NCBI GenBank assembly: GCA_000934665.2
Contig: KZ538465.1
Location: 48,422-68,421, forward strand
Reading direction: 5' to 3'
DNA from: Catajapyx aquilonaris
Taxonomy: Eukaryota
DNA length: 20,000 nucleotides
Position 1 is the stretch's first letter. Every line of letters begins with the position of its first letter. Positions 3,963-19,343 of the stretch are shown here, in pieces. The translations under genes were made by a program, and so were the position numbers. The notes under the pieces were generated by a model. It searched no databases. It was not told where the DNA came from and saw only the letters and a list, made by a program, of their open reading frames with translations.

Positions 3963-4551
3963 TGCAGTATGTCGCTGCCATCGATAAATGCTACAGCAAC
4001 ATTGGCATCAATATTTTGATAAAATTCAGAATGTAATTGCTTCTAATAATTGGCAGTGCTTTCAATAAATCCTCTGTAAATGTTCAAACTTGGAGATAAA
4101 AATTACCTAAGCTGAACAGCCACTTTCAGTAACAATAGTCTGACATAATACCGCAACACCCATAAAAAAAATTACATCAGGACATTCACATGGGCCGGAT
4201 TTTAAATTTTTTGAACATGTTAATTATAATTGTAAGCGCTCTGTATTATAAGAGAACAATTGTTGGAGAAAAAAAAAATCATGTGACCAACACAACAACT
4301 TTCAGATCTATCCGGACCTGAACATATCAAATTTTGAAAAAAATTAGAAAGGTATTCGCATTCCACACAGCCTACATTATACAGATCAATTGAAGTACTT
4401 ACACTCGCAAATGAAACGCATTTAAATAACGCCGCCTGTATAAAAAATTATCAAATCTGATTGTAATTACTTAGCTTTTGGTTGACTTGCGCCAAAAAAA
4501 AGTCGTATAACTATGAAAGTGTGACATGTTCATATATATGTCATGCACTTA

Positions 4552-6814
4552 TCTAATACATATTTCAAGACCTATATCTGTCTGTCTGTCTGTCACCTAA
4601 ACAGATCCATACGGAGGCCTCCACATATGCCCCAGGGGTATCACCAGGGGTAGTTTTTTACCGGGAATAACATAGGCACATTGGAATTGACCTCCGAGGT
4701 CATCCTTGGCCACAGGAGGCGAAAAGGACTTTGGACGTTGGCCCCCTGTGTTCTAATAATGCTGTTTAGTTGCCCTGGAAACCATGTCCCTCCCTCCCTC
4801 CCTCTCTCTCTCTCTCCATTCCTCCCTCCCCCCCCTGCCACCACCTCCTCCAGCCCCTCAGTGTCATTACATTTCTACGTGGTGGCTGTACTTTGGTCAG
4901 TGCTTTTGCACTCACATTGGGTGCATACTTTATTGTTCCAATTTAGAATTTATTACACACTGTTGCCTTGGTTACGAGACTACTGGTGTGATTGGGTGAT
5001 GGTCACGTTTTGTTCATAATATTCAAAGAGTTCCATATATTGCTATGCTGGTATCTCATTTCAACACGGTGGCACGGTCCAGCTACGGCCTCGGGGCAGG
5101 CCCAGGGTTCGAGCTGGTGGTATACAAATGCGCTGTATGTAAGAATAGCGGTTTTGGGTTGTTTCTTCAGGGAGCCTGTCGGAATTTTCTTGGCGTACTT
5201 TTCCTGCATTACCTTTTCCTCTACGTATACTGTGTCATGTGCTTTTTGTCGGAATTCTCCTGTTCCGAACTGTGTTACGTTCTGTGTCGTGTAGTTTTCA
5301 ATCGTTTTGTTTTTATTTGTTTTTTCCCTCTTTGTAAATTTTGGACCTCCACATTCTCAGTGTATATTCAGAAGTCGTTATGGGATGTGGTTTAACGTGT
5401 TTAAGGTGTGGTATAAAGGTATAAGGTGTATAAGGTGTGCCATAATGTGGTCTACGTAGGTTTGTGTCATGCAGTTTTCAATCTTCTTTGCATTTGTTTG
5501 TTTTTTCACTTTCTAACGTTTGGACCTCCAGATTCTCAACACCCCACCGACTTTAACATGGGCCTAAAAACATAGCAGCATTGGCAGAAGCACATTGTAC
5601 ACACGCAGAGTTCGGCTAAGGGTGAGGGACCAATCAAGAGACTGAGGAAGAACACCAATCATGTCTCCACTCTATGAGAAACAGCGGCCATCAGTCGGAG
5701 ATTAGCTCCATTTTCTTCAACCCACCTCCTACATGCCGCTTTCCACTACTCAGCAGACATTGACAATAATTCTTCTGTCGGTGTTGTTGCAATTGGATCT
5801 ATGTCAGAGGTATGCCACCATTGTCAGGCAAAGAAGTGGAAGGGTGAAACAAAATCGATCTGTTGCTCCATTGGAAAGGTTAGCCTTCCTCTAGACTGGC
5901 TGAGCCTCCACAGCTACTTAAAATGCTTCTCTCAGGTACAGTACATCGTCTGATTCAAAACATTTCCTGAATACCATCAGAAATTACAATTTGGCCTTCC
6001 AGATGACATCTTTTGGGGCCAACGTTGTTAGACAAGGGGGCTTCATGCCTACATTCAAAGTGCAAGGGCAAATTTACCTTCGCATGGGATCACTCCTTCC
6101 TTCAGAAAATCACAGTCCGCGGTTTCTGCAACTTTACTTCGTGGGAAACATGCAACAGCAGGCGGAATACAGTTGCACCTACTTAAACGACACACGCCTC
6201 CACATCACACTGCAACTTCAGGAGATGATCCATTCCACTCACACTTACGTCAAAAGCGTCAAGCTTGCACTTGAGAGTCCTCCTCCTCTCGAATTTGACT
6301 TGGTCATCGATGCAGACAAGCGACCACAAGGTGAGCATCGTGGTCGATTCAATCAACCTTCTTGCAATGGGGCTGCTGTGATCATGAGTGGTCAGGATGA
6401 GCATGGTAATAAGAGGGAAATTGTGTTGAAGCTTCGAGACAACACGCTTCATCTATGCAATTATGAACGTAATTGGCTATACCAAATATTGCATGTGCAT
6501 CAAGTCCAGAAAACACACATTGGATATCAGATTGTAAGCTCTGCCATGCTGGAGCTTCTACACATTCTACATTTACTTCTACATTTACTGCACAACCTTC
6601 AATTTTTCATTACATACTTTTGCTGGATTTTGGAGGTGCATTGTGTATTACCTTACAATCTGACATCCGCAGTGTGGTGTTTGGACTTCATGCACATGCA
6701 ATATGCTCCATGTCATGGTATGCCAACATTGTATAGCCATAATTATTGCAAATCAATGAGTCACTCCTATGGAAAAGTATTTCATAACCCGAGCAACGCC
6801 GGGTATCCGGCTAG
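4552..6814 (+). mobile_element. Non-autonomous, internally deleted Helitron
   Basis: 5' A|TC at 4551/4552, followed by a (CTGT)n microsatellite at about 4577-4594. 3' hairpin ACCCG-agcaacgc-CGGGT (6787-6804), then CTAG|T (6811-6815). Internal RepHel N-terminal coding remnant. The 3' end is more certain than the 5' end. Confidence 0.8.
5792..6450 (+). pseudogene. Helitron RepHel N-terminal region remnant (Cys cluster plus pre-Rep region), frameshifted and truncated
   Basis: IGSMSEVCHHCQAKKWKGETKSICCSIGKVSLP / EPPQLLKMLL / SKHFLNTIRNYNLAFQMTSFGA...GFMPTFKVQGQIYLRMGSLLP...PRFLQLYF...GEHRGRFNQP...REIVL. Two frameshifts near 5895 and 5945. No HUH Rep core or Pif1 helicase seen. Confidence 0.88.
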
Positions 6815-6999
6815 TTGTCTATATAATTGCTGAACATTAACAAATTCACAGAATTTAAATATCTGATTGGCATTTAAATAATTATTTATTTCCAGCACTG
6901 CGCATTCCAATAGAGAACACCAGTCAGAACGCACCCTTAAAAAAAACTGTTTTTCTAAGACATCGGTAGCAACGCACCCTTTTTTTTATAAATAAATAA

Positions 7000-7011
7000 T
7001 CCAAGATGGCG
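7000..7011 (+). promoter_or_regulatory. YY1/Pho-type motif TCCAAGATGGCG upstream of the Harbinger-derived gene
   Basis: Matches the AAGATGGCG YY1/Pho consensus about 20 bp before the ATG at 7031. The identical 12-mer occurs upstream of ZNF-D. Confidence 0.45.
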
Positions 7012-7030
7012 ACTGTTCCACTCAGATAAA

Positions 7031-8508
7031 ATGGACGAGGATTTGCTCCTTGCTACGGCTGCCTTTGGGCTTTTCGCGATGGCATGCACGGTAGTAGAAA
7101 AGGTGCGGAAATGTCGGCGACGTAGGGGACCCACCAGGGATTTGGAACGACGGCGTCACGAGAGAGGAACTTACAACAACATACGTGAACTTCACTTCCA
7201 GGACAAGTAAGTCGTGTTCCAGGCACTTGACAACAACCCCCTTCATTTAGATTCTTCTTTTTTTTTCCAATAGCGAGTGGCTACGGATGGATACGTTCAA
7301 CTACTTGGCCGACCTGACCAGATCACGACTGACACGGCAAACAAGTTTGATGTGTGAAGCTGTATGCTCGGAGGAACGGCTTGCAGTTACGCTCAAGTAT
7401 CTGGCCACTGGAACCACCTTTAAAGAGTTGTCATGCGTGTTCCGGCTGGGGGAGAGGACCATTTCGTACATTGTTATCGAGACATGCTTGGTGTTAAGTG
7501 AGGTCCTAGCTGGCCTCATTCAATTCCCCCGAAATCCGTCAGCATGGGAAGACGTTGCTCTTGGATTTTGGGAACAATGGAATTTCCCCAGGTGCTTAGG
7601 CGCCATCGACGTGAAGCGTATCACTCTCAGAAAGCCGTTACTGTCCGGCTCACAAGGGATTGACCTTATGGCGGTTGTAGATTCGGACCTTAAGTTTATC
7701 TACGTCGACATTGGAACAAGCGGGGTTTGGGACGAGTGCAGATTGAGTAGGGAATTGGCCGAGGGGAAGATTGATCTCCCGAGGCACATGCCGTTGCCTG
7801 GGGAGACGCAGCAGATCCCTCATGTTTTTGTCGGTGATGACGCCTTCCCACTCAAACCTTACCTTATGAAGCCGTACGCCACGAGGAATCTGGCTTATGA
7901 GCAAAGGATTTTCAATTACCGGTAGGTGTGTTTCATGCAAAGGTTATTGCGGAGTAATTAAATATATTAATGTTAGGCTTTCACGAGCGGCGCGGTGCGT
8001 AGAGAGCGCCTTCGGAGTTCTCGCATACAGATTCCGTGTTCTCCTGAATCCCATGCTACTGCAGCCATCCCAGGCTACGATTGTCGTCCGTGCTTGCTGC
8101 ACCCTCCACAACCTGTTGCGGTCAAGAGCAACCTCCAGAGATGTGTACAGCCCAAAAAATCTAACAGACCAGGAAGACGAAAGCAGCGGACACATTACGC
8201 CGGGAATGTACGTATAATGTACCTCTTGCCGCCTAAAAGTGCTGTCCTTTTGTGTACATTTTATGCGAGAAAAGTGCACAATGAATTTGGCCAGAAATAA
8301 TCATGTGCATCAGGCCACCTCAACTTCTCTTTTGTTGAAATTACGCTTTTTAAATCATTTCAGATGGAGACAAGATGACCACTCGTATTCCATGCTTCCA
8401 ATCACCCCGCCAGCCAGAGGACAAAACGGTCTTACAGAAGCCGAGGAAGTACGACAGCGATTCAAGGACTTCTTCAACTCGCATGGCGCTGTACCTTTGT
8501 CAGGATAA
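7031..8508 (+). CDS. PIF/Harbinger transposase-derived protein (HARBI1/ALP1-like, DDE_Tnp_4 family), 399 aa; exons 7031-7206, 7274-7921, 7977-8207, 8364-8508
   Basis: Three GT-AG introns (67, 55, 156 nt) give one 1200-nt frame. Motifs: LRMD, EERLAVTLKYLATG (HTH), WNFPRCLGAID, FVGDDAFPLKPYLMKPY, IFNYRLSRAARCVESAFGVL, CCTLHN, VRQRFKDFF..GAVP. AATAAA at 8580-8585. Confidence 0.9.
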
Positions 8509-8786
8509 CTCGAAATTGCAATGAACTGTGCCTCTGGCGCAATGTAACACACAAAGAGGACAAAAAAGAGCGTAAGAACAATAAATCGGACGGTTTCTAC
8601 ACTTTCACCCAGAAATATTCCCCCGATGCTCATTTAAAAATAATTTTATTTAACAAACATGTCCATTGACAATGTAAATATAATTGCTAGCATTAGTCGC
8701 AAAAATATCGCTGAGTAACTGCAACTGCACATTATCATATGAAAATAACACCTCATGGAGCTCTTTAATAATATAACACAATCATT

Positions 8787-8996
8787 GCATATATAAAAGG
8801 CAAAGTTTGTCTGTATGTCCATGGCAACAGGCGTCCATAGCAACGGTTGTTAGTGGAAGCAGGCCACACGTGAAGATCAAGCTCGATTATCATCATTACA
8901 TATATAAGCCGCACAGTTTGTTTGTCTGACCATGGCAACAGGTGGTCATGGCAACAGGTGGTCATGGCAACAGGTGGTCATGGCAACAGGTGGTCA
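8787..8996 (+). repeat. Short interspersed element with duplicated head and 4x 16-bp tandem repeat CATGGCAACAGGTGGT
   Basis: Heads at 8787 and 8899. Perfect units start at 8931, 8947, 8963 and 8979. The head is similar to the reverse complement of 12845-12900. Confidence 0.8.
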
Positions 8997-9102
8997 GGGA
9001 ATCAAACTGTGGAAACAGTCCACTGCTGTGAAGATTTCCAGTATAATATAATAATAACTGTAATTTTAAGGGTGCACGTGACAACATGTGTGTAAAAATG
9101 CA

Positions 9103-9959
9103 TTATTTGGCAGCGTGTTTCCGCTTTATGTGCATCTTTAGAGTGGAGCGTACGACGAACGAGCGGTTGCAATATTCGCAAATGTATGGCCTCTCGCCTG
9201 TGTGTATTCGTGTGTGTTCAATCAAGTGGCATTTGAGAGTGAAGGACTTCCCGCAGGTTTCGCATGGGTATGGCCGCTCACCAGTGTGCGTCCGTCTGTG
9301 CTGCACCAAGTGTAGCTCCCACGAGAATCCTCGGTTGCAATACTCGCATGTGTAAGGAAGCCCGCCTGAGTGTGACTTCGCGTGGACGACCAGGTTGGAG
9401 CTCTTAGCGAACGACATGTTACAGCGCTTGCAAGTGTACTTTTTCTCGCCCGTGTGAGTACGTATGTGTGCGACGAACGCGCTGCTTTGAACGAACGACT
9501 TGCTGCAAATCCTGCATGTGTATGGCTTATCCCCGTTGTGAGTCGCGCGGTGTCTGACTAACTCGGAGTTGTGCGCAAATGTCTTATCACAGAATTCGCA
9601 TGCAAACGGCTTTTCCTCCACATGCACGTCCGCATGATCAGTCAGTGCCGTACGAGACGTGAAGGACTCGCTGCAAACGGTGCAAGTGAACGGCCGCTTC
9701 CCACCATGGGTCTTAAGGTGCGGTAACATCTGCCGCTTGGCATGAAACGACTTCTTACAAAATTCGCAACTGTAAGTGGATCTAGTGTGCGGCCCCTTTG
9801 ACTTCTCAGCTGCGGCTGAAGCATCCGGATCGTCTTCGGCATTGTCTGAAGCTTCAGGGGCTTGCGCTACTTCAACAACATCATCGTCCGAGTCGTCTAG
9901 TGTCACCTCTTCCTTAACCTCAGACTTCACTGTCGATCTATTCACCAGCGGCATCTGGT
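9103..9959 (-). CDS. C2H2 zinc-finger protein ZNF-B (8 fingers), main exon
   Basis: Eight canonical fingers with HTGEKK/HTGERP linkers and an acidic N-terminus (VKSEVKEE...DDSDDD). Acceptor ttgcag precedes 9959; in-frame ATG at 9954. Upstream exons not resolved. Confidence 0.95.
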
Positions 9960-10021
9960 CTGCAATTAATTAATTAATAAAAATTCATAATGCAAGGTCA
10001 AAATAACCATTCTACAGTTTC

Positions 10022-10022
10022 A

Positions 10023-10077
<55 letters not shown>
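10022..10077. repeat. (ATT)n microsatellite
   Basis: Uninterrupted trinucleotide run. Confidence 0.97.
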
Positions 10078-10079
<2 letters not shown>

Positions 10080-10730
10080 AAGGCAAAATGTTTTCTCGCT
10101 TGTCCAGTTTGTTCGTCCAAATATTGTTTGCTTGTCCCTCATTTGTCAATTTGTTGGTCTTACGTTTGTTTGTCCAGATAGTTTGTTTGTCCTTCGTTTG
10201 ATAATTTGTTTGTCCACACACTTTGTTTTATCCTGCGTTTGTTTGTTTGTCCAGATACTTTCTTTTTGTTTGTCCTTCGTTTGTTTACTTGTTTGTCATG
10301 CATCTGTCCAGACACTTTGTGTTGTCCTGCGTTTGTTTGTTTCTCCAGATACTCTGTTTGTTTGTCCTCCATTTGTTTATTTGTTGGTCGTACGTTTGTC
10401 CAGATACTTTTGTTTGTTAATTTGTTTGTCCAGACACTTTGTTTTGTCCTGCGTTTGTTTGTTTGTCCAGATACTTTCTTTGTTTGCCCTTCGTTTGTTT
10501 GTCCTTCGTTTGTTTGTCGTACGTCTGTTTGTCCAGACACTTTGTTTTGTCATGCGTTTGTTTGTTTGTCCAGATAACTTTGTTTGTCCATTGTTAATTT
10601 GTTTGCCCAAATTGTTTGTCTTAATTAGTTCATTTGTTTGTTGTACGTTTGTTCGTCCAGATGTTTGTCCTTCGGTGGTTCGGTTGTTCATTTGTTTGTC
10701 CAGTTTGTTTGTTTGTAAAGGTTTGGTTAT
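10078..10730. repeat. TTTG-rich degenerate minisatellite with recurring TTTGTCCAGAYAC cores
   Basis: Repeated TTTGTTTGTCCAGA(T/C)ACTTT and GTCCT(G/T)CGTTTG blocks; strongly A-poor on the + strand. Confidence 0.9.
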
Positions 10731-11661
10731 CCGCAGTACTTTGAAACGCTGTACTTTTCCACTGTCGCAATATTCACCAGTGACACGTGATCCGTAATTA
10801 ATTAATTAAGTAATTAATTACCAATTAAAGTGTTGAATGAATAATGAACAGCTGAAAACAGCAGTATATACTTTACAATGTTACAAACTAGTTACTGGCC
10901 AGGTGTGTACTTTCCAGGGCTCCAGGGACAGTTGGCGTTCCAATTAAGTCTGCAAACGAGAAGCACCTTGACGTGTATGACCGATAATTAGCGAAGTAAT
11001 TGACTCCGCAATTAGTGCAATCTCGACAATAATAGAAAGAAAAGGTGGGTATATGGCGACTCCAAGCGGCGGGTATGACAACTAACTAGAAATCTGATTC
11101 ATATGATAATTTTAATTGAACGTGACTGCTCTTAAATATGTTTTGACAATACATAAAGACGTTTAACTATGTAAAGCACTTAAAATAAATTAAAACAGTC
11201 CAAATTATTGAGTGGTAACAACGCTAGATGTCTGATAGCGGTCAATATTGAAAATATATTAAGGCTCATTCGGGTGTCTGCTCATTACCTGCACTTTTTT
11301 ATTTAATTAAACTTCAGTTCTAATCTAGGGTTAGCTCATACGCATTTTAATGTAATACTGTCCCTACACAATAGGATATTAATTTAAACAACTGTAAGTA
11401 GAACAAGTTAGCATTTACTTTAAGAAAAAAATATCAATACTTCTGCATTACCAGATCAGAAAATCATTATCGCAATTAAAGCATATTTAATAGCCTAATT
11501 ATTAAACATTTCTGCCGAGCACATGGTTTGATTTAATTGGCTGCAAATTTTTAGCGCACATTAATATTGTGCAAATAAAATCCAAATGAAAATGTGGGGT
11601 TGCCAGACACAGCGCGCACTTCTCCTCACCCGGCGTTCGAAACTTTCTGCTGAAGCTTTAA

Positions 11662-11944: not shown

Positions 11945-14900
11945 ATGGACTGGCTGAAGGAGCTTCACTACTACATGTCGTCGAAGGAAGACGTCCCTCG
12001 CATGCAGGGAGAAATGCTTCTGCTGCAGCCGAACGTCATCTTCAGACTTGTCGTCAAGTTCAACTTGCTTCAAGTCTTCAACGACACAGGTACGCAGCTT
12101 CAATTACCATACAATTATTCCATACAATTAATATTATCTGTATCTCTATCTCATCTATAGCTCTATATTTAATTATATAAAAGCGTGGCTATAAGTTTGT
12201 TCGTTTATCCAGGCTGTTTGTTTGTTTATCCAGGTTGTGTTTGTTTGTTTGTTTATCCCGATTGTGTTTGTCTGTTTCTTTATTCAAGTTGCACTTGTTT
12301 GTATGTTTGTTTATCCAGGTTGTTATTGTTGCTCTCTTCTTTGTCCAGGCATCAGGCTGTTTGTTTGTTTGTTTATGTGTCCAGATTGTGTTTGTTTGTT
12401 TATCAAGATTGTGTTTGTCTGTTTCTTTATCCAAGTTGCACTTGTTTGTATGTTTGTTTATCCAGGTTGTTTGTTTATCCAGGTTGTTTGTTTATCCAGG
12501 TTGTTTGTTTGCTTGTTTCTTTGTCCTGATTGTTTTCTTTGCTGTCTTGTCCAGGCTGTCTGTTTGTTTATCCAGGTTGTGTTTGTCTGTTTGTTCATCC
12601 AGGTTATGCTTCTCCCAGTTGTTTGTTTGTTTTGTTCAGTTGGGTTGTTTATCCATGTTATGTCGTTTCTCCTGGTTGTTTGTTTTGTTTATCCAGATTA
12701 TTTGTTTGCTTGTTTCTTTGTCCCCGATTGTTTTCTTGCTCTTTTGTTTGTCCGTCAGCCTGCTTGTTTCTTTGTTTGTCCAGGTTTGGTTACCACGCCA
12801 ACAGGTTTCTATAATTTTCATAATCCTCAGCGGAACCTGCCTGTTTTCCATGGTAGCCCTGTTGCTATGGACAAACAAACAAACTTTCCCTTATATATAC
12901 CTGAGTGTATGCGTAAGAAAATAATTTGATGAAAATTGATGGACTTCTTCTATACCTATTTGAATGTGTTGCAGTGCATTTGGGTTGGAAGTTGATAACC
13001 ATACCCAAGTATGTGGAGGCCGCCATCAGAGAGTGGGTAGTGGACGTGTCCAAGGGAGCCTTGGAAGCGGCCAGGGTCCAGGTTGCGCTGAGGATATCGC
13101 ACCATCCGCACCCAGGAGTGGTGCCGGAGATCCACCGCTTCTCACAGCTCCTGACGTCGCCTTCGGAACCAAAATCCATTCTGTTCCAGTGCTCCGGATT
13201 GCTGTTGGCCATGTCCAACCCAGTTCTCTACAAGTGAGAATTACATGTCTGAAATGCGGATGGGGATCTAATCGAATGAATTTATTGCAGTCAGAGCGAA
13301 TCGTACCATTGCCCCGATAAAGCTTGCCCTGGACGATCCGAGTGGATATTCGACACTTGTCCGACCGACAAGCCGCAACAGCTGCTGTGCGCCACGTGCG
13401 GCCAGCTCCTTGAACTAGACTACACCCAGAAGATCCTGGGGACAAAGGTCATGGGCACAGTTGTCCCCGACCACACCCCCTACAATGCACACATCAGTCG
13501 TACTCAGACAATCCAAGTTTCCTTCAAAGGTGCGTTTTCTGGTACGGAAACACTGGTTTTTTACTAATTATGGTCCATCCGCAGATGACCTCGTTAAAGG
13601 ACTGACCCTCGGCGGACACTACGACATCCTGGGATATCCCGTGTACATTAACGACAAGACACTAAAGAACCAATGGGTCACATGCTTAGAGTGTTGCGGC
13701 GTGGTCCATATCAGGACCTACTCGCCGTTTCCAGCCTGCCATCCTCCATTGCCAGATACTCCAGCCGGTGAACTCTACCACTGCTTGCGACAGGACCACC
13801 ACAATAGCCTGTTTCCGCTGGCTTTGGCCTTCTCCGCAGCTCCCATGGTGACACATCCGGCCACATTCATCCAGCTCAAACTTGCATTGTTGCTGGGACT
13901 CGTAGCGAACAGTGTGCATCCGATATCAATATTGGCCGAAGCATCTGACTCAAACACTGTGCACGACATTATGAGCTGGGCACTTCAAATTGCCCCTAGG
14001 TAAGCGCCATGTAATCGACGACGTTTAATGACGCTCAAAACCATTTGTCACATGTAGGTCAGTTGTACATTCCATCAGCATGCCGCTGGTGGTTGGAGCA
14101 ATGCCGAAGAAGCAGGGTGCGGAGGCTGGCTCAATGTTGCGGGCCGGTAATGGCGTGTGCTACCTTGGCGAAATATCCCGTCTCCGTAAGGATGCAAGGA
14201 ATGCGATTTACACGGTACTGGACAATCAGGCGGTTGCGGCGAAGGCCTGCAGTGAGCTGGATCGCATGGGACGAGGAATAAGCTCGTACAATATCACATG
14301 CGGGCTGTGGGCGTACAGCGAACTTGTGCCCAAGTCCAAGGAACCCATCATGCGGTATGCGAATTGTACAGTAATTCATAATGGATTGTAATCACTCGTT
14401 TACATTCATCAGGATGTTTGGACTCCACTTCTACATAGACGACTCCAGTAGGATTGGTCAGGAGCTGGACGTAATTAAGTCGTCGTACTTTCTGGCCTGT
14501 GCGACTAATGGCGACAAGAAGAACCTTCCGAGAGGGGCCAACCTGAGCGTCGTAGAATTCCGGCAGCTCATATACGAGAGTGCGGGCAGGAAGGTCGTGT
14601 TCTCGCCCGAAGCCGAGATGATGATCCGCCATTACTACGTGACCACCAGGAAAATCCGGTATGAAAACGGCGGTGCGCTCAGCAAGAATTTCGTACCGGA
14701 CTCGGCTTGCGCTGCCATGTGCGTAACCCAGTATGCATCTGGAACGTTACTTTAGCTCAGAATAATGTACCGCAATTTTTTGTAGAACCGGAATGGCCGT
14801 TGCTCATGCGAAGTTGCGGTACAGCAGCGAAGTGACTGAAGATGATGCCGCAATTGCGATCTGGATCTACGAGGATGCTAAAACTGCGCTGGCTAATTTC

Positions 14901-15123
14901 TCGTGCCTCGGATGGGAGTCGCAGCCGCATATGATTGGGATCAACACCATTGAGGACCTAGCCAGCAAGGTCTGGAAGTTAAATTTGGCTTAAAAATAGC
15001 CTAATTTAACCGAGTGTATTCTTGCAGCATGATGTCTTCTTCTCATCGTTGAAAGGCGCAATCAGGAAATTCATGGCCGAAGATTCAAAGGCAGCCTCCA
15101 ATGATGGCAGCAGATCCGGCTGA
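11945..15123 (+). CDS. MCMDC2: MCM domain-containing protein 2-like (meiotic recombination), 646 aa; exons 11945-12089, 12975-13233, 13291-13529, 13585-13999, 14058-14354, 14413-14718, 14786-14969, 15028-15123
   Basis: Seven GT-AG introns join into a stop-free 1941-nt frame. It has an MCM Zn finger (CPDKAC...CATC), LKLALLLGLV, EAGSMLRAGNGVCYLGEI, FSPEAEMMIRHYYVTTRKIR and AHAKLRYSSEVTEDDAAIAI. Degenerate Walker A/B motifs fit MCMDC2 rather than MCM2-9. Confidence 0.88.
12176..12900. repeat. TTTG-rich repeat element (TTTATCCAGGTTG cores) filling most of MCMDC2 coding intron 1
   Basis: Recurring GTTTGTTTATCCAGGTTG units inside the 885-nt intron 12090-12974; the other six introns are 55-67 nt. 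Confidence 0.9.
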
Positions 15124-15940: not shown

Positions 15941-16819
15941 TCAGAGGAGTCCACCGTGGATGTTGGCAATGTGTCTCTTAATACTTGCGCAGTATGAAAA
16001 CCGCATGTTGCATATTTCACAGGCAAACGGCTTCTCACCAGTGTGCATCCTCTTGTGAACAACTAGGTCACCCTTCCACATGAACGACTTGCCACACTCT
16101 TCACACTTGTATGGCCTCTCTCCTGTATGGGTCCTCCTGTGTACAAGTAGCACAATCTTTTGCGTGAAAGACTTGGCACACTCTCCACATTTGAATGGCC
16201 TCTCCCCAGTGTGGATTCTACGGTGCCTCGCCAAGGCTGAGTGGAAAGAGAAAGTTTTGCCACAATCCGGACACTCCAGTGGCTTCAGTCCACGGTGCAT
16301 TTGTCTATGCTTCATCATGTCGCTGTCACGAGGGAATGTCTTGTAACAAATCTTGCAACTAAATGGCCTAGGTCCACTACTAGAAGGCTGTGTGGACATT
16401 GCAGGTGTGCCAAGTGGATCTTCAACTCCTTCGGTGATTCTTGGTGCATCCACCAGCATTTCCTCTTCTTCTTCAGTCTTCACCTCCACTTCTCCAATGT
16501 CCAACTCATCATCTTCACAATCATCTTGCTCTTGCACTGGTGAGAGCCTCTCTTGCTTAATCATCATGGTTGCCTCTTCTGCAGTATCGTCACTTCCTTC
16601 TTTCACCTCAGAGGTATGAATTTGCCATCTGTGGGAAATGCAAACAGACACATCATGTATCATTAGAGGATAATATCACTGGTGCGACTCTTGTTTATAT
16701 ATAATGGCCTGTCAGGATTAGGAGGGAAATGATTTCACGACTTAGGTGTAAGTACACAACCAGCCGTACCTGTTGTCGTTATCAGCAATTGTGGCGCAGT
16801 CCCATCCCCAAGCCTCCAT
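15941..16819 (-). CDS. C2H2 zinc-finger protein ZNF-C (5 fingers), 245 aa; exons 16819-16770 and 16628-15941
   Basis: Five fingers with TGERP/TGEKP linkers. The 141-nt intron (AG|gtacgg...ccacag|A) joins MEAWGWDCATIADNDNR in frame to WQIHTSEVKE. Confidence 0.92.
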
Positions 16820-18025: not shown

Positions 18026-19067
18026 CTATCCATTATGAATTCGCATATGCTGTTTCAAAGTGCTTGACTGACTAAAACCTCTCTGGCAGACATCACAAAT
18101 GAATGGCTTTTCTCCCGTATGAGTTCGCATGTGATCTTGCAAATTGCTTTTAGTCCTAAATCCTTTCTGGCACACCTCACAAATGAATGGTCTCTTTTGA
18201 GTATGAGTTCGCATGTGTGTTTTCAAAGCGCATGACTGACTAAAATTTTTCTTGCACACATCACAAGTGTATTGTCTCTCGCCGGTATGAATTAGCATGT
18301 GTGTTTTCAAATACTTTGAATCGAGAAATCTTTTCTGGCAAAGCTCACATTGAAGTCTCTCTCCCGTATGAATTCGCATGTGAGCATTCAAATCACATGC
18401 TGTGCGAAATACTTTCTCGCACAACTCACAAATGAATGGTTTAACCATTGAATGAACTTGCATGTGAAGTTTCAAGCCACTTGAACTGACATATTTCTTC
18501 TTGCACACGTCACAAGTAAATGGTCTCTCGCCCGTATGAGTTCGCATGTGAACTTCCAAGCTCCTTTCATTACACAATTTCTTCTGGCAAATTTGGCAGC
18601 GATTTTTGTCACGATGAGTTAACATATGAATTTCCAATTTATGCAGAGTACCAAACAATTTCTCGCATATTCTGCATGCATGTGGATTTCCTGTAGTGCT
18701 TCTTTCCTCCTTGGTTCTGCCCTTTCCTGCTGCGTCTTCAGCGGTATCTTGCACGATCTGAAATGTGAATCAAGTTTAGCACAAATTTATATTGGAATTT
18801 CAGCAGATTACGTACCGCACTAATCTTTCCGGAGCCAAGTGCTAATGGGTCTTCTTCATCTTCGACCGCACTGGGCGTGGCCAACACCATCTCCTCCTCC
18901 TCCTCCTCTGGCTCCTCTTTGATTCCTTCTTCTACGAAGAGTGTGGCGTCCCCTTCGAAGCATCCCGGTGCCTCCTCCTTGAGCTGCAGCCTCCACGTCT
19001 CCTCCACCTTGAGGTCTTCTCCTTCCTCCAGCTCCTCCTCCTCCTCCTTGACCCCCAACGAGGTCAT
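18026..19067 (-). CDS. C2H2 zinc-finger protein ZNF-D (8 fingers), about 327 aa; exons 19067-18816 and 18757-18026
   Basis: Acidic exon joined by a 58-nt phase-0 intron (GCG|gtacgt...tttcag|ATC) to an eight-finger exon. An in-frame stop lies upstream of the ATG at 19067. Confidence 0.92.
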
Positions 19068-19331
19068 GGAGGTCACCCAATGACCTCAATCCACGTCCCA
19101 ACCTTGGAGGGTCTGCCAAAGAGGAACATTCGGATGTGCCTGCCGCACACTTCGAAACAAAAGGCCTGCCCTTCCACCCTCACACCTGAGCCCTCCTTCC
19201 CTGCACTGAGCATGCCCTGCACATCAAACCCTAGTTACCTGCACTCCTCCCGGGGTAATCACACGTCTAATTAAACGTCATTCATTGTTTGCAAGTGTTG
19301 GAAGTTCAATGTTTCAGAAAATAACAATCGG

Positions 19332-19343
19332 CGCCATCTTGGA
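19332..19343 (-). promoter_or_regulatory. YY1/Pho-type motif TCCAAGATGGCG upstream of ZNF-D
   Basis: CGCCATCTTGGA on +, in sense orientation for the minus-strand gene. Confidence 0.45.

Follow-up and report, generated by a model that had tools for sequence, protein, structure and literature searches.

A four-exon gene derived from a PIF/Harbinger transposase

We analyzed a window of 20,000 nucleotides (nt) from the genome of Catajapyx aquilonaris (GenBank assembly GCA_000934665.2, contig KZ538465.1, positions 48,422 to 68,421 of the forward strand), and found that it carries, on the plus strand at window positions 7031 to 8508, a gene derived from a transposase of the PIF/Harbinger type. The gene consists of four exons, which were joined by a script into a coding sequence of 1200 nt, i.e. 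399 amino acids (aa) and a stop codon, and all three of its introns have GT..AG borders. Exon 1 (7031..7206) runs from the ATG to the first donor site and comprises 58 codons plus 2 nt, including a basic cluster (RKCRRRRGPTRDLERRRHERG) that could act as a nuclear localization signal; an in-frame stop lies 14 codons upstream of the ATG. Exon 2 (7274..7921) follows a predicted intron of 67 nt (7207..7273) and encodes helices similar to HTH_Tnp_4 as well as the first part of the RNase H-like core of DDE_Tnp_4, with the catalytic residues D171 (7608-7610) and D247 (7836-7838). The end of this core, with E284 (8002-8004) in the motif VESAFG, is found in exon 3 (7977..8207), after intron 2 (7922..7976, 55 nt). 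Intron 3 (8208..8363, 156 nt) is followed by exon 4 (8364..8508), a C-terminal tail that is homologous to the C-terminus of the family and ends with the stop codon TAA, and a poly(A) signal, AATAAA, is situated at 8580-8585. A preliminary description, made from the letters of this DNA and their open reading frames (ORFs), had proposed both the intact 399-aa frame of four exons and the downstream AATAAA, and both were borne out.

Across all four exons, the product is collinear with full-length animal transposases of the PIF/Harbinger (DDE_Tnp_4) type. Exon 2 alone retrieved 8191 proteins at E<=0.001 (best 1.8e-46) when run with phmmer against an exhaustive library, and word-indexed searches returned animal proteins of ~400 aa with the domains PF13359 and PF04827 at 35-50% identity. 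Pfam recognized the separate pieces weakly, with scores below or at the DDE_Tnp_4 cut-off of 24.8 bits: exon 2 reached 20.2 bits (E 5e-4), exon 3 21.4 bits (E 2e-4) and a longer frame at 7870-8214 24.9 bits. HTH_Tnp_4 was identified in exon 2 at E 5e-3, and Plant_tran in exon 3 at E 1.4e-4. The two ends of the protein were compared with the family profile by hhalign. While the match of exon 1 to the family N-terminus was weak, it occurred at the collinear profile position (probability 61%, E 8e-5), and exon 4 matched the family C-terminus over 44 columns (probability 96.6%, E 6.9e-10). Since exon 2 is so widely matched in the library and exons 1 and 4 match the ends of the family, the four exons can jointly be taken to encode a full-length PIF/Harbinger-type transposase homolog, about whose family there is no doubt.

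The catalytic triad is kept while two core segments are lost

The DDE triad is present: in the alignments, the residues D171, D247 and E284 occupy the columns in which the family almost invariably has D, D and E, and the motifs GAID, GDDAF and VESAFG can all be read in the 399-aa product. The region around the first aspartate has changed more. In the alignments, the family consensus there is GAIDGKH..P..SGS.Y.NYK..FSIVLMA.VDA.Y.F.YVDVG..GR.SDGGV, whereas the gene reads GAIDVKRITLRKPLLSGSQ, then, with 8 residues missing, GIDLMAVVDSDLKFIYVDIGTS and, with another 6 residues missing, GVWDEC. Directly after D171, VKR (7611..7619) replaces the GKH of the family, so that IDGKH has become IDVKR; the position after the aspartate is G in 355 out of 370 relatives and V in only 3 out of 370, while the H of DGKH is H in 335 relatives and R in 25. 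The first deletion (7653..7658) has removed 8 aa of the segment xYxNYKxxFS, between the Q and the G of SGSQ|GIDL, and the second (7716..7724), whose break is ambiguous by one residue, has removed 6 aa of the NGRxSD segment, within IGTSGVW. All of these observations, i.e. the retained D, D and E motifs, the change to IDVKR and the in-frame loss of the NYK-type and G-x-x-(S/H)D segments, agree with what the preliminary description had reported.

Segment lengths were measured over 371 fetched relatives, 369 of which cover the region. The first segment, counted after the conserved GS, has 12 residues in 348 of the 369 relatives and 4 here, and the second (xNGRxSDG) has 8 residues in 357 of them and 2 here. 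A first segment of at most 8 residues was found in 10 relatives and a second segment of at most 3 residues in three, but no relative (0/369) had both shortened. The deletions are real and no assembly error, since a contig at 7493-7751 from sequencing run X5, which belongs to a second sample and study, spans both sites with a single difference. DGKH, NYK and G-R-x-S-D, the core blocks that the family conserves near its triad, are thus not preserved, and the combination of a kept triad with two excised core loops is the one unusual trait of this gene.

When 56 strongly conserved columns, defined as those shared by at least 85% of 220 full-length relatives, were considered, the gene was found to keep 44, compared with a median of 53, and 44 or fewer were kept in 13 of the 220 relatives. 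The losses cluster near the active site: G172V, H174R, the N/Y/K and G/D columns, R280A and N285S. This pattern is one of several that would suit an old, immobilized Harbinger relic, i.e. a copy that lost its ends and its partner, acquired two in-frame deletions in its core, is transcribed from a fortuitous or nearby promoter, is not under selection and has kept its frame open by luck or because it is younger than it seems. The loss of 12 of the 56 positions, concentrated at the catalytic core, and the Pfam scores at or under the cut-off are what such a relic might display. On the other hand, most conserved positions outside the deleted segments have been kept, both of the deletions unique to this gene are in frame, and a frame of 1200 nt with four exons and six intact splice sites is found in a gene whose sole sibling at 80% identity or more is a piece of 139 nt. 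We regard the relic as a real possibility, though one that falls short of an even chance, and return to it below.

Predicted structures place the lost segments beside the catalytic sheet. An AlphaFold2 model of exon 2 alone, computed with an alignment of 111 rows, had a mean predicted local distance difference test score (pLDDT) of 90.2 and displayed five N-terminal helices, after which the three core strands are in place (107-117, 128-135 and 141-147); confidence drops locally at both shortened joints. The nearest intact relative, P0103, was modelled at full length (pLDDT 93.2). In that model, the segment corresponding to the first deletion is a loop between core strands 1 and 2, and the one corresponding to the second comprises the loop that follows strand 3 and the first part of the helix after it, with an almost invariant D among its residues. 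The PDB gave no meaningful match when searched by sequence; searched with the P0103 model by Foldseek, it returned DDE transposases and integrases as weak matches (best E 2.3e-3, ISCth4, TM ~0.26), which at most confirm the general fold class of the model. According to these models, the fold has probably been kept, with two conserved loops beside the catalytic sheet cut back.

Relatives and probably inherited introns

The closest relatives were P0102 (48% identity), P0256 (46-50%) and P0224 (54-55% over 118 aa), the last being a fragment that ends before the deletion sites. Metagenome contigs of the Joint Genome Institute (JGI) contributed three loci at 40-42% identity, and the Harbinger relatives as a whole come from crustaceans, molluscs, insects and fishes. 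In a FastTree phylogeny (LG model, 221 sequences, 380 columns), the sister of the gene is the ENA cluster P0103/P0249/P0250, with a support of 0.89, and the gene sits within a clade that includes the crab protein P0253.

Two relatives, P0256 and P0258, are ORFs resembling exon 2, both of which end just past FNYR and have their motifs intact. P0256 opens at ..SWLRMD and P0224 at ..NWLRMD, which in both cases would fit a shared position of intron 1. As the ORFs of these relatives appear to open and end at the borders of exon 2, the gene probably took over its intron positions from the transposon lineage.

Copy number and transposon hallmarks

Copy number was assessed with Logan contigs of the DNA runs X1 and X4, and of run X5, aligned to 6000-9100 at 80% identity or more. 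The gene lies in a single-copy segment (6832..8703), which is bordered on the left by a high-copy repeat ending at ~6815 and on the right by a ~7-fold repeat starting at ~8704. A single contig covers 6780-8960, at depths of 36.3 (X1) and 22.5 (X4), as compared with 31.1 and 20.8 for the neighboring contig. At this level of identity the gene is present once in the genome, apart from one paralogous fragment of 139 nt. The many near-identical copies with terminal inverted repeats (TIRs) and TWA duplications, whose presence had been set beforehand as a check on the preliminary description, were consequently not seen, the DNA contigs having single-copy depth.

The paralogous fragment is part of the only other contig that matches the gene, which is 473 nt long, has single-copy depth and matches 7296-7434 with 14 differences (~90% identity). 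Among the 9 of these 14 differences that were listed, 4 codons are silent and 3 are replacements, a ratio that leans weakly toward constraint. Were the fragment part of a functional paralog, the locus could belong to a small, diverged host family of at least two Harbinger-derived genes, in which domestication predates the locus and the deletions arose later in one paralog. We consider this improbable. Its single-copy depth, its similarity to the gene and the slight excess of silent changes would fit such a family, but just 139 nt align at 80% identity or more, the rest of the contig is unmatched and may be a mere fragment, and the remaining 5 of the 14 differences were unlisted.

No pair of inverted repeats bracketing the gene was identified in any of the inverted-repeat searches. 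Between 5800-7031 and 8508-9700 there were 90 inverted pairs of 12-mers, while shuffled sequences gave a mean of 65 and a maximum of 92; among the 90 pairs, equal flanks of 3 bp were found in one (0.85 expected) and TWA in none. A partner gene was sought in 75 ORFs with 75 aa or more, taken from the entire window, and in 68 ORFs of 40-74 aa from 4300-11500; none matched Myb, SANT, MADF or THAP domains, although a fast-evolving, intron-split partner could escape such a search. The Harbinger partner gene is indeed described as evolving fast and as possibly split by introns (PMC9710019). The statements in the preliminary description that TIRs and a Myb/SANT/MADF partner ORF are lacking hence stand, the former by pair counts within the shuffled expectation and the latter across 143 ORFs.

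That the locus holds a living Harbinger copy, autonomous or mobilized in trans and still able to move, is after these results very hard to maintain and has largely been refuted. Such a copy would be expected to have the DDE triad, the helix-turn-helix (HTH) and the full-length frame that are present here, and to be transcribed, as this gene is; however, the gene has single-copy depth, no TIR or TWA duplication beyond chance and no Myb-like second gene in the 143 ORFs, where transposition requires both Harbinger proteins (PMC9710019), and the segments it has lost are precisely those present in 348/369 and 357/369 relatives.

Two further features of the segment borders were evaluated and set aside. 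Joints at 6999->8794 and 6807->8789 in the DNA runs might be taken for an 'empty site', but their shorter sides are 20-21 nt of low-complexity A/T sequence beside the ~7-fold repeat, and they were judged to be chance alignments. An imperfect direct repeat of 16 nt (14/16 identical) occurs at the edges of the single-copy segment, at 6816-6831 (TGTCTATATAATTGCT) and 8673-8688 (TGTAAATATAATTGCT), and may be due to chance. It was not retained as a long target duplication, as the unit has introns and so is no retrocopy, and as short two-copy repeats often arise by chance.

Transcription and a promoter-like motif

Run X5 stems from another sample and another study of the same organism, and comprises 85,611 contigs with 32 million letters. 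It has no recorded run kind and was taken to be RNA-like because intron-less joints occur in it without intron cover. One of its contigs, of 506 nt and depth 11, joins 8207->8364 exactly (GT..AG) with 232 nt on the shorter side, and at its other end has a joint at 7920->7976, where the cut is ambiguous by 1-2 nt and the short side is 28 nt. Introns 2 and 3 have zero cover in X5, and both joints are absent from the DNA runs X1 and X4. The same contig ends at 8609, 24 nt past the poly(A) signal, so that the signal and the 3' end of the RNA together occupy 8580..8609. These data, which come from one study, show that the gene is transcribed, that introns 2 and 3 are spliced out and that the RNA ends just past the poly(A) signal. 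The check by RNA junctions that had been proposed for the preliminary description is therefore positive for introns 2 and 3, whereas at intron 1 the one relevant contig reads into the intron.

Immediately upstream of the gene, a promoter-like motif, TCCAAGATGGCGAC, is found at 7000..7013 on the plus strand, with the core AAGATGGCG at 7003-7011, 20 nt before the ATG. An X5 contig covering 7008-7213 has its 5' end, at 7008, inside this motif. The core matches the window twice where 0.13 matches would be expected, and two or more matches were obtained in 3 out of 200 shuffles. The YY1-type motif of the preliminary description thus exists and is enriched; the name YY1 is one that we presume for it. 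The second copy, TCCAAGATGGCGCC, which is nearly identical, is situated at 19330-19341 on the minus strand, ~250 nt upstream of the coding frame of a zinc-finger gene. The shared element, TCCAAGATGGCG, hence occurs 5' of both the transposase-derived gene and this zinc-finger gene (frames 18741-19085 and 18029-18769, minus strand). As judged from the sequences, the sharing of TCCAAGATGGCGAC and TCCAAGATGGCGCC hints at a promoter element of host type, and TCCAAGATGGCG is possibly a common promoter element of the Catajapyx aquilonaris genome.

Genomic neighborhood

The window contains four frames encoding C2H2 zinc fingers, with 4-7 fingers each (1288-1929, 9106-9969, 15944-16675 and 18029-18769), every one of them on the minus strand, in line with the earlier remark that the gene is embedded among zinc-finger genes. 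Three of the four have an acidic, Glu-rich stretch before the fingers, either in the same frame or, for 18029-18769, in the adjoining upstream frame 18741-19085. The N-termini of the zinc-finger proteins look somewhat fish-like. The zinc-finger gene at 9106-9969 and the transposase-derived gene lie tail-to-tail, and 8967-9100 is covered by a contig of X5.

Other parts of the window are occupied by gene fragments. A plus-strand frame of 199 aa at 3420-4016 matches the Piwi domain in two stretches reaching the profile end (E 2.2e-51). The proteins most similar to it, with 52-54% identity, are Siwi/Aubergine of arthropods, and nothing closer was found. It looks like an intron-less Piwi gene fragment or pseudogene in a repeat-rich stretch. 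At 14032-14990 (plus strand), separate frames weakly resemble MCM proteins, with a match to the P-loop domain at E 1.8e-4 and one to the lid at E 6e-3, and are probably decayed MCM-like fragments.

The repeats flanking the single-copy segment are of different kinds. To the left, 6000-6815 is a very abundant repeat with hundreds of variant contigs and a summed depth of 3e4-1e5, as opposed to ~36 for single-copy sequence; bins across 6000-6831 have this depth, and the homology of other copies stops at ~6815. A frame of 303 aa at 5922-6830 (plus strand), which extends across this repeat, had no Pfam match at E<=0.01, and the tentative label Helitron-like was dropped. To the right, 8704-9015 has ~7-fold depth, with head-to-tail copies of GGTCATGGCAACAGGT at ~8930-8985 as well as a pair of similar ~120-nt units, and the fact that several contigs 'go back' in this region suggests variation in the length of the array. 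Further downstream, 9991-10805 and 12173-12929 have long stop-free frames on both strands with monotonous translations (FVCLSRL..., QTNKRRT...) and without Pfam matches, and look like minisatellite-like repeats rather than genes. Assembly gaps are represented by 94 N at 2096-2189 and a single N at 2905.

Discussion

The results are best described as an immobilized, expressed gene derived from a transposase, for which domestication is plausible but unproven. Our preferred interpretation, to which we assign a probability of roughly 0.55, is that a PIF/Harbinger transposase gene has become fixed at this locus and is maintained by the host, making it a candidate domesticated transposase. It was also the reading of the preliminary description, of which the anatomy of the gene, its single copy, the lack of TIRs and TWA duplications and the spliced transcripts have been upheld, while domestication itself is partly supported. 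Domestication is unproven since no counterpart was found in another species.

Under this interpretation, the transposase would have lost its ends, its partner gene and its mobility, and would have been kept as an ordinary host gene. The change from DGKH to DVKR, which puts a bulky Val next to the first Asp, and the removal of the NYK and GRxSD loops would make transposition unlikely. With no ends to act on, and with DVKR and the two removed core loops, the gene presumably has no transposase function. What it has retained, namely the HTH, the RNase H-like fold and the DDE triad, might then be put to another use. The analogy of ALP1/ALP2, HDP1, HARBI1 and the insect PLG genes would make a nuclear adaptor, paired with a DNA-binding protein from another locus, the most likely role; a nuclease of altered specificity, which the intact triad might allow, is less likely. 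That both deletions are in frame, and that the frame and splice sites are intact in a copy without siblings, suggests selection on the frame.

Several points weigh against host maintenance. No relative above 55% identity was found in the protein and metagenome collections searched, and the terminal branch of the gene, at 0.73, is rather long compared with a median of 0.39 (rank 34 out of 221), which fits decay too. So does the loss of conserved positions, which exceeds that of ~94% of the relatives. The uniqueness of the gene was established for identities of at least 80%, and a related fragment of ~90% identity exists elsewhere in the genome. The junction of intron 1 was not seen in RNA, as the X5 contig at 7008-7213 reads 7 nt into the intron. 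As for the models, AlphaFold2 has a tendency to impose the family fold when fed a family alignment. The neighborhood is moreover rich in repeats and gene fragments. Finally, Harbinger transposons are themselves transcribed in animals (PMC9179366), and because they often are, expression alone proves little.

These points are to a large extent those that the unselected relic introduced above would explain: the failure to find an ortholog in the collections searched, the setting, with its high-copy repeat and its pieces of Piwi and MCM genes, the existence of a paralogous fragment and the common expression of Harbinger elements would all be natural for it. Less natural, in addition to the open frame and the in-frame deletions, would be two correctly spliced introns, an RNA that ends at a poly(A) signal and a promoter motif of host type in common with a zinc-finger gene, and we accordingly place the relic below the host-maintained gene in probability.

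The known kind closest to this gene is that of PIF/Harbinger transposases domesticated repeatedly in insects, plants and vertebrates. Vertebrate HARBI1 is a transposase-derived host gene that has kept the DDE triad and whose Myb-like partner, NAIF1, is encoded elsewhere. The present gene resembles it in being Harbinger-derived with a retained triad, but does not appear to be its ortholog: its nearest relatives are unnamed or auto-named proteins of 35-48% identity with intact motifs, and the tree contained no bona fide HARBI1. The labels 'HARBI1' and 'ALP1-like' carried by some matches are automatic names only.

In insects, the domestication of PIF transposases has been recurrent and includes cases with the transposase only (PMC9710019). 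The insect genes DPLG (Drosophila) and APLG, LPLG and BPLG (mosquitoes, Lepidoptera and cockroaches) are likewise ~400 aa long and single-copy, have introns and lack TIRs and target site duplications (TSDs), and BPLG1, BPLG2 and LPLG1 are transposase-only genes with no adjacent MADF gene, like the one found here (PMC9710019). The criteria that Markova et al. applied to insects combine an intact frame and the lack of related copies and of TIR/TSD with syntenic orthologs, conserved exon structure and a ratio of non-synonymous to synonymous substitution rates (dN/dS) of 0.04-0.25 (PMC9710019). As far as these criteria concern a single genome, the present gene shows the same features, i.e. an intact coding region, no TIR/TSD and no related copies. 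The insect PLG genes differ in having been defined by syntenic orthologs and dN/dS values of 0.04-0.25, whereas the gene described here is known from one genome. It is at most ~43% identical to the insect proteins listed among the matches.

In Arabidopsis, the domesticated ALP1/ALP2 and HDP1 have lost transposition and act within chromatin complexes, namely PRC2 and a histone acetyltransferase complex (PMC4671723, PMC7282668, PMC5339849). They belong to the plant lineage, and a chromatin role for the present gene would be purely by analogy. A further comparison is with intact animal transposases (P0103/P0249/P0250, P0102, the Eriocheir cluster P0001/P0253, and P0256), which agree with the gene in length and in the order of their domains. 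On either side of exon 2, the intron positions also appear to be shared with P0256, P0258 and P0224. In contrast to the present gene, which has lost them, the intact transposases keep both the NYK and the NGRxSD segments as well as DGKH, which is DGKR in P0102.

A more specific version of the preferred interpretation is a lineage-restricted, independent domestication outside the PLG, HARBI1 and ALP families, in which the triad was kept and the loops trimmed to yield a re-tooled nuclease or chromatin adaptor, with a promoter element shared with zinc-finger genes and possibly with zinc-finger proteins as partners. We consider this version tentative and, taken with all its parts, rather unlikely. 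That the domestication is 'undescribed', as was first suggested, is possible, but its kind is well known, given the recurrence of PIF domestication (PMC9710019).

Host genomes have repeatedly taken Harbinger transposases into service, in the known cases for chromatin regulation. The gene of Catajapyx aquilonaris is at present a well-documented candidate and no demonstrated new gene, and its value lies mainly in providing a locus that can be checked in related genomes. If it is domesticated, it would show which parts of the enzyme become dispensable once mobility ends, since here the catalytic triad survives while two highly conserved neighboring loops are gone.

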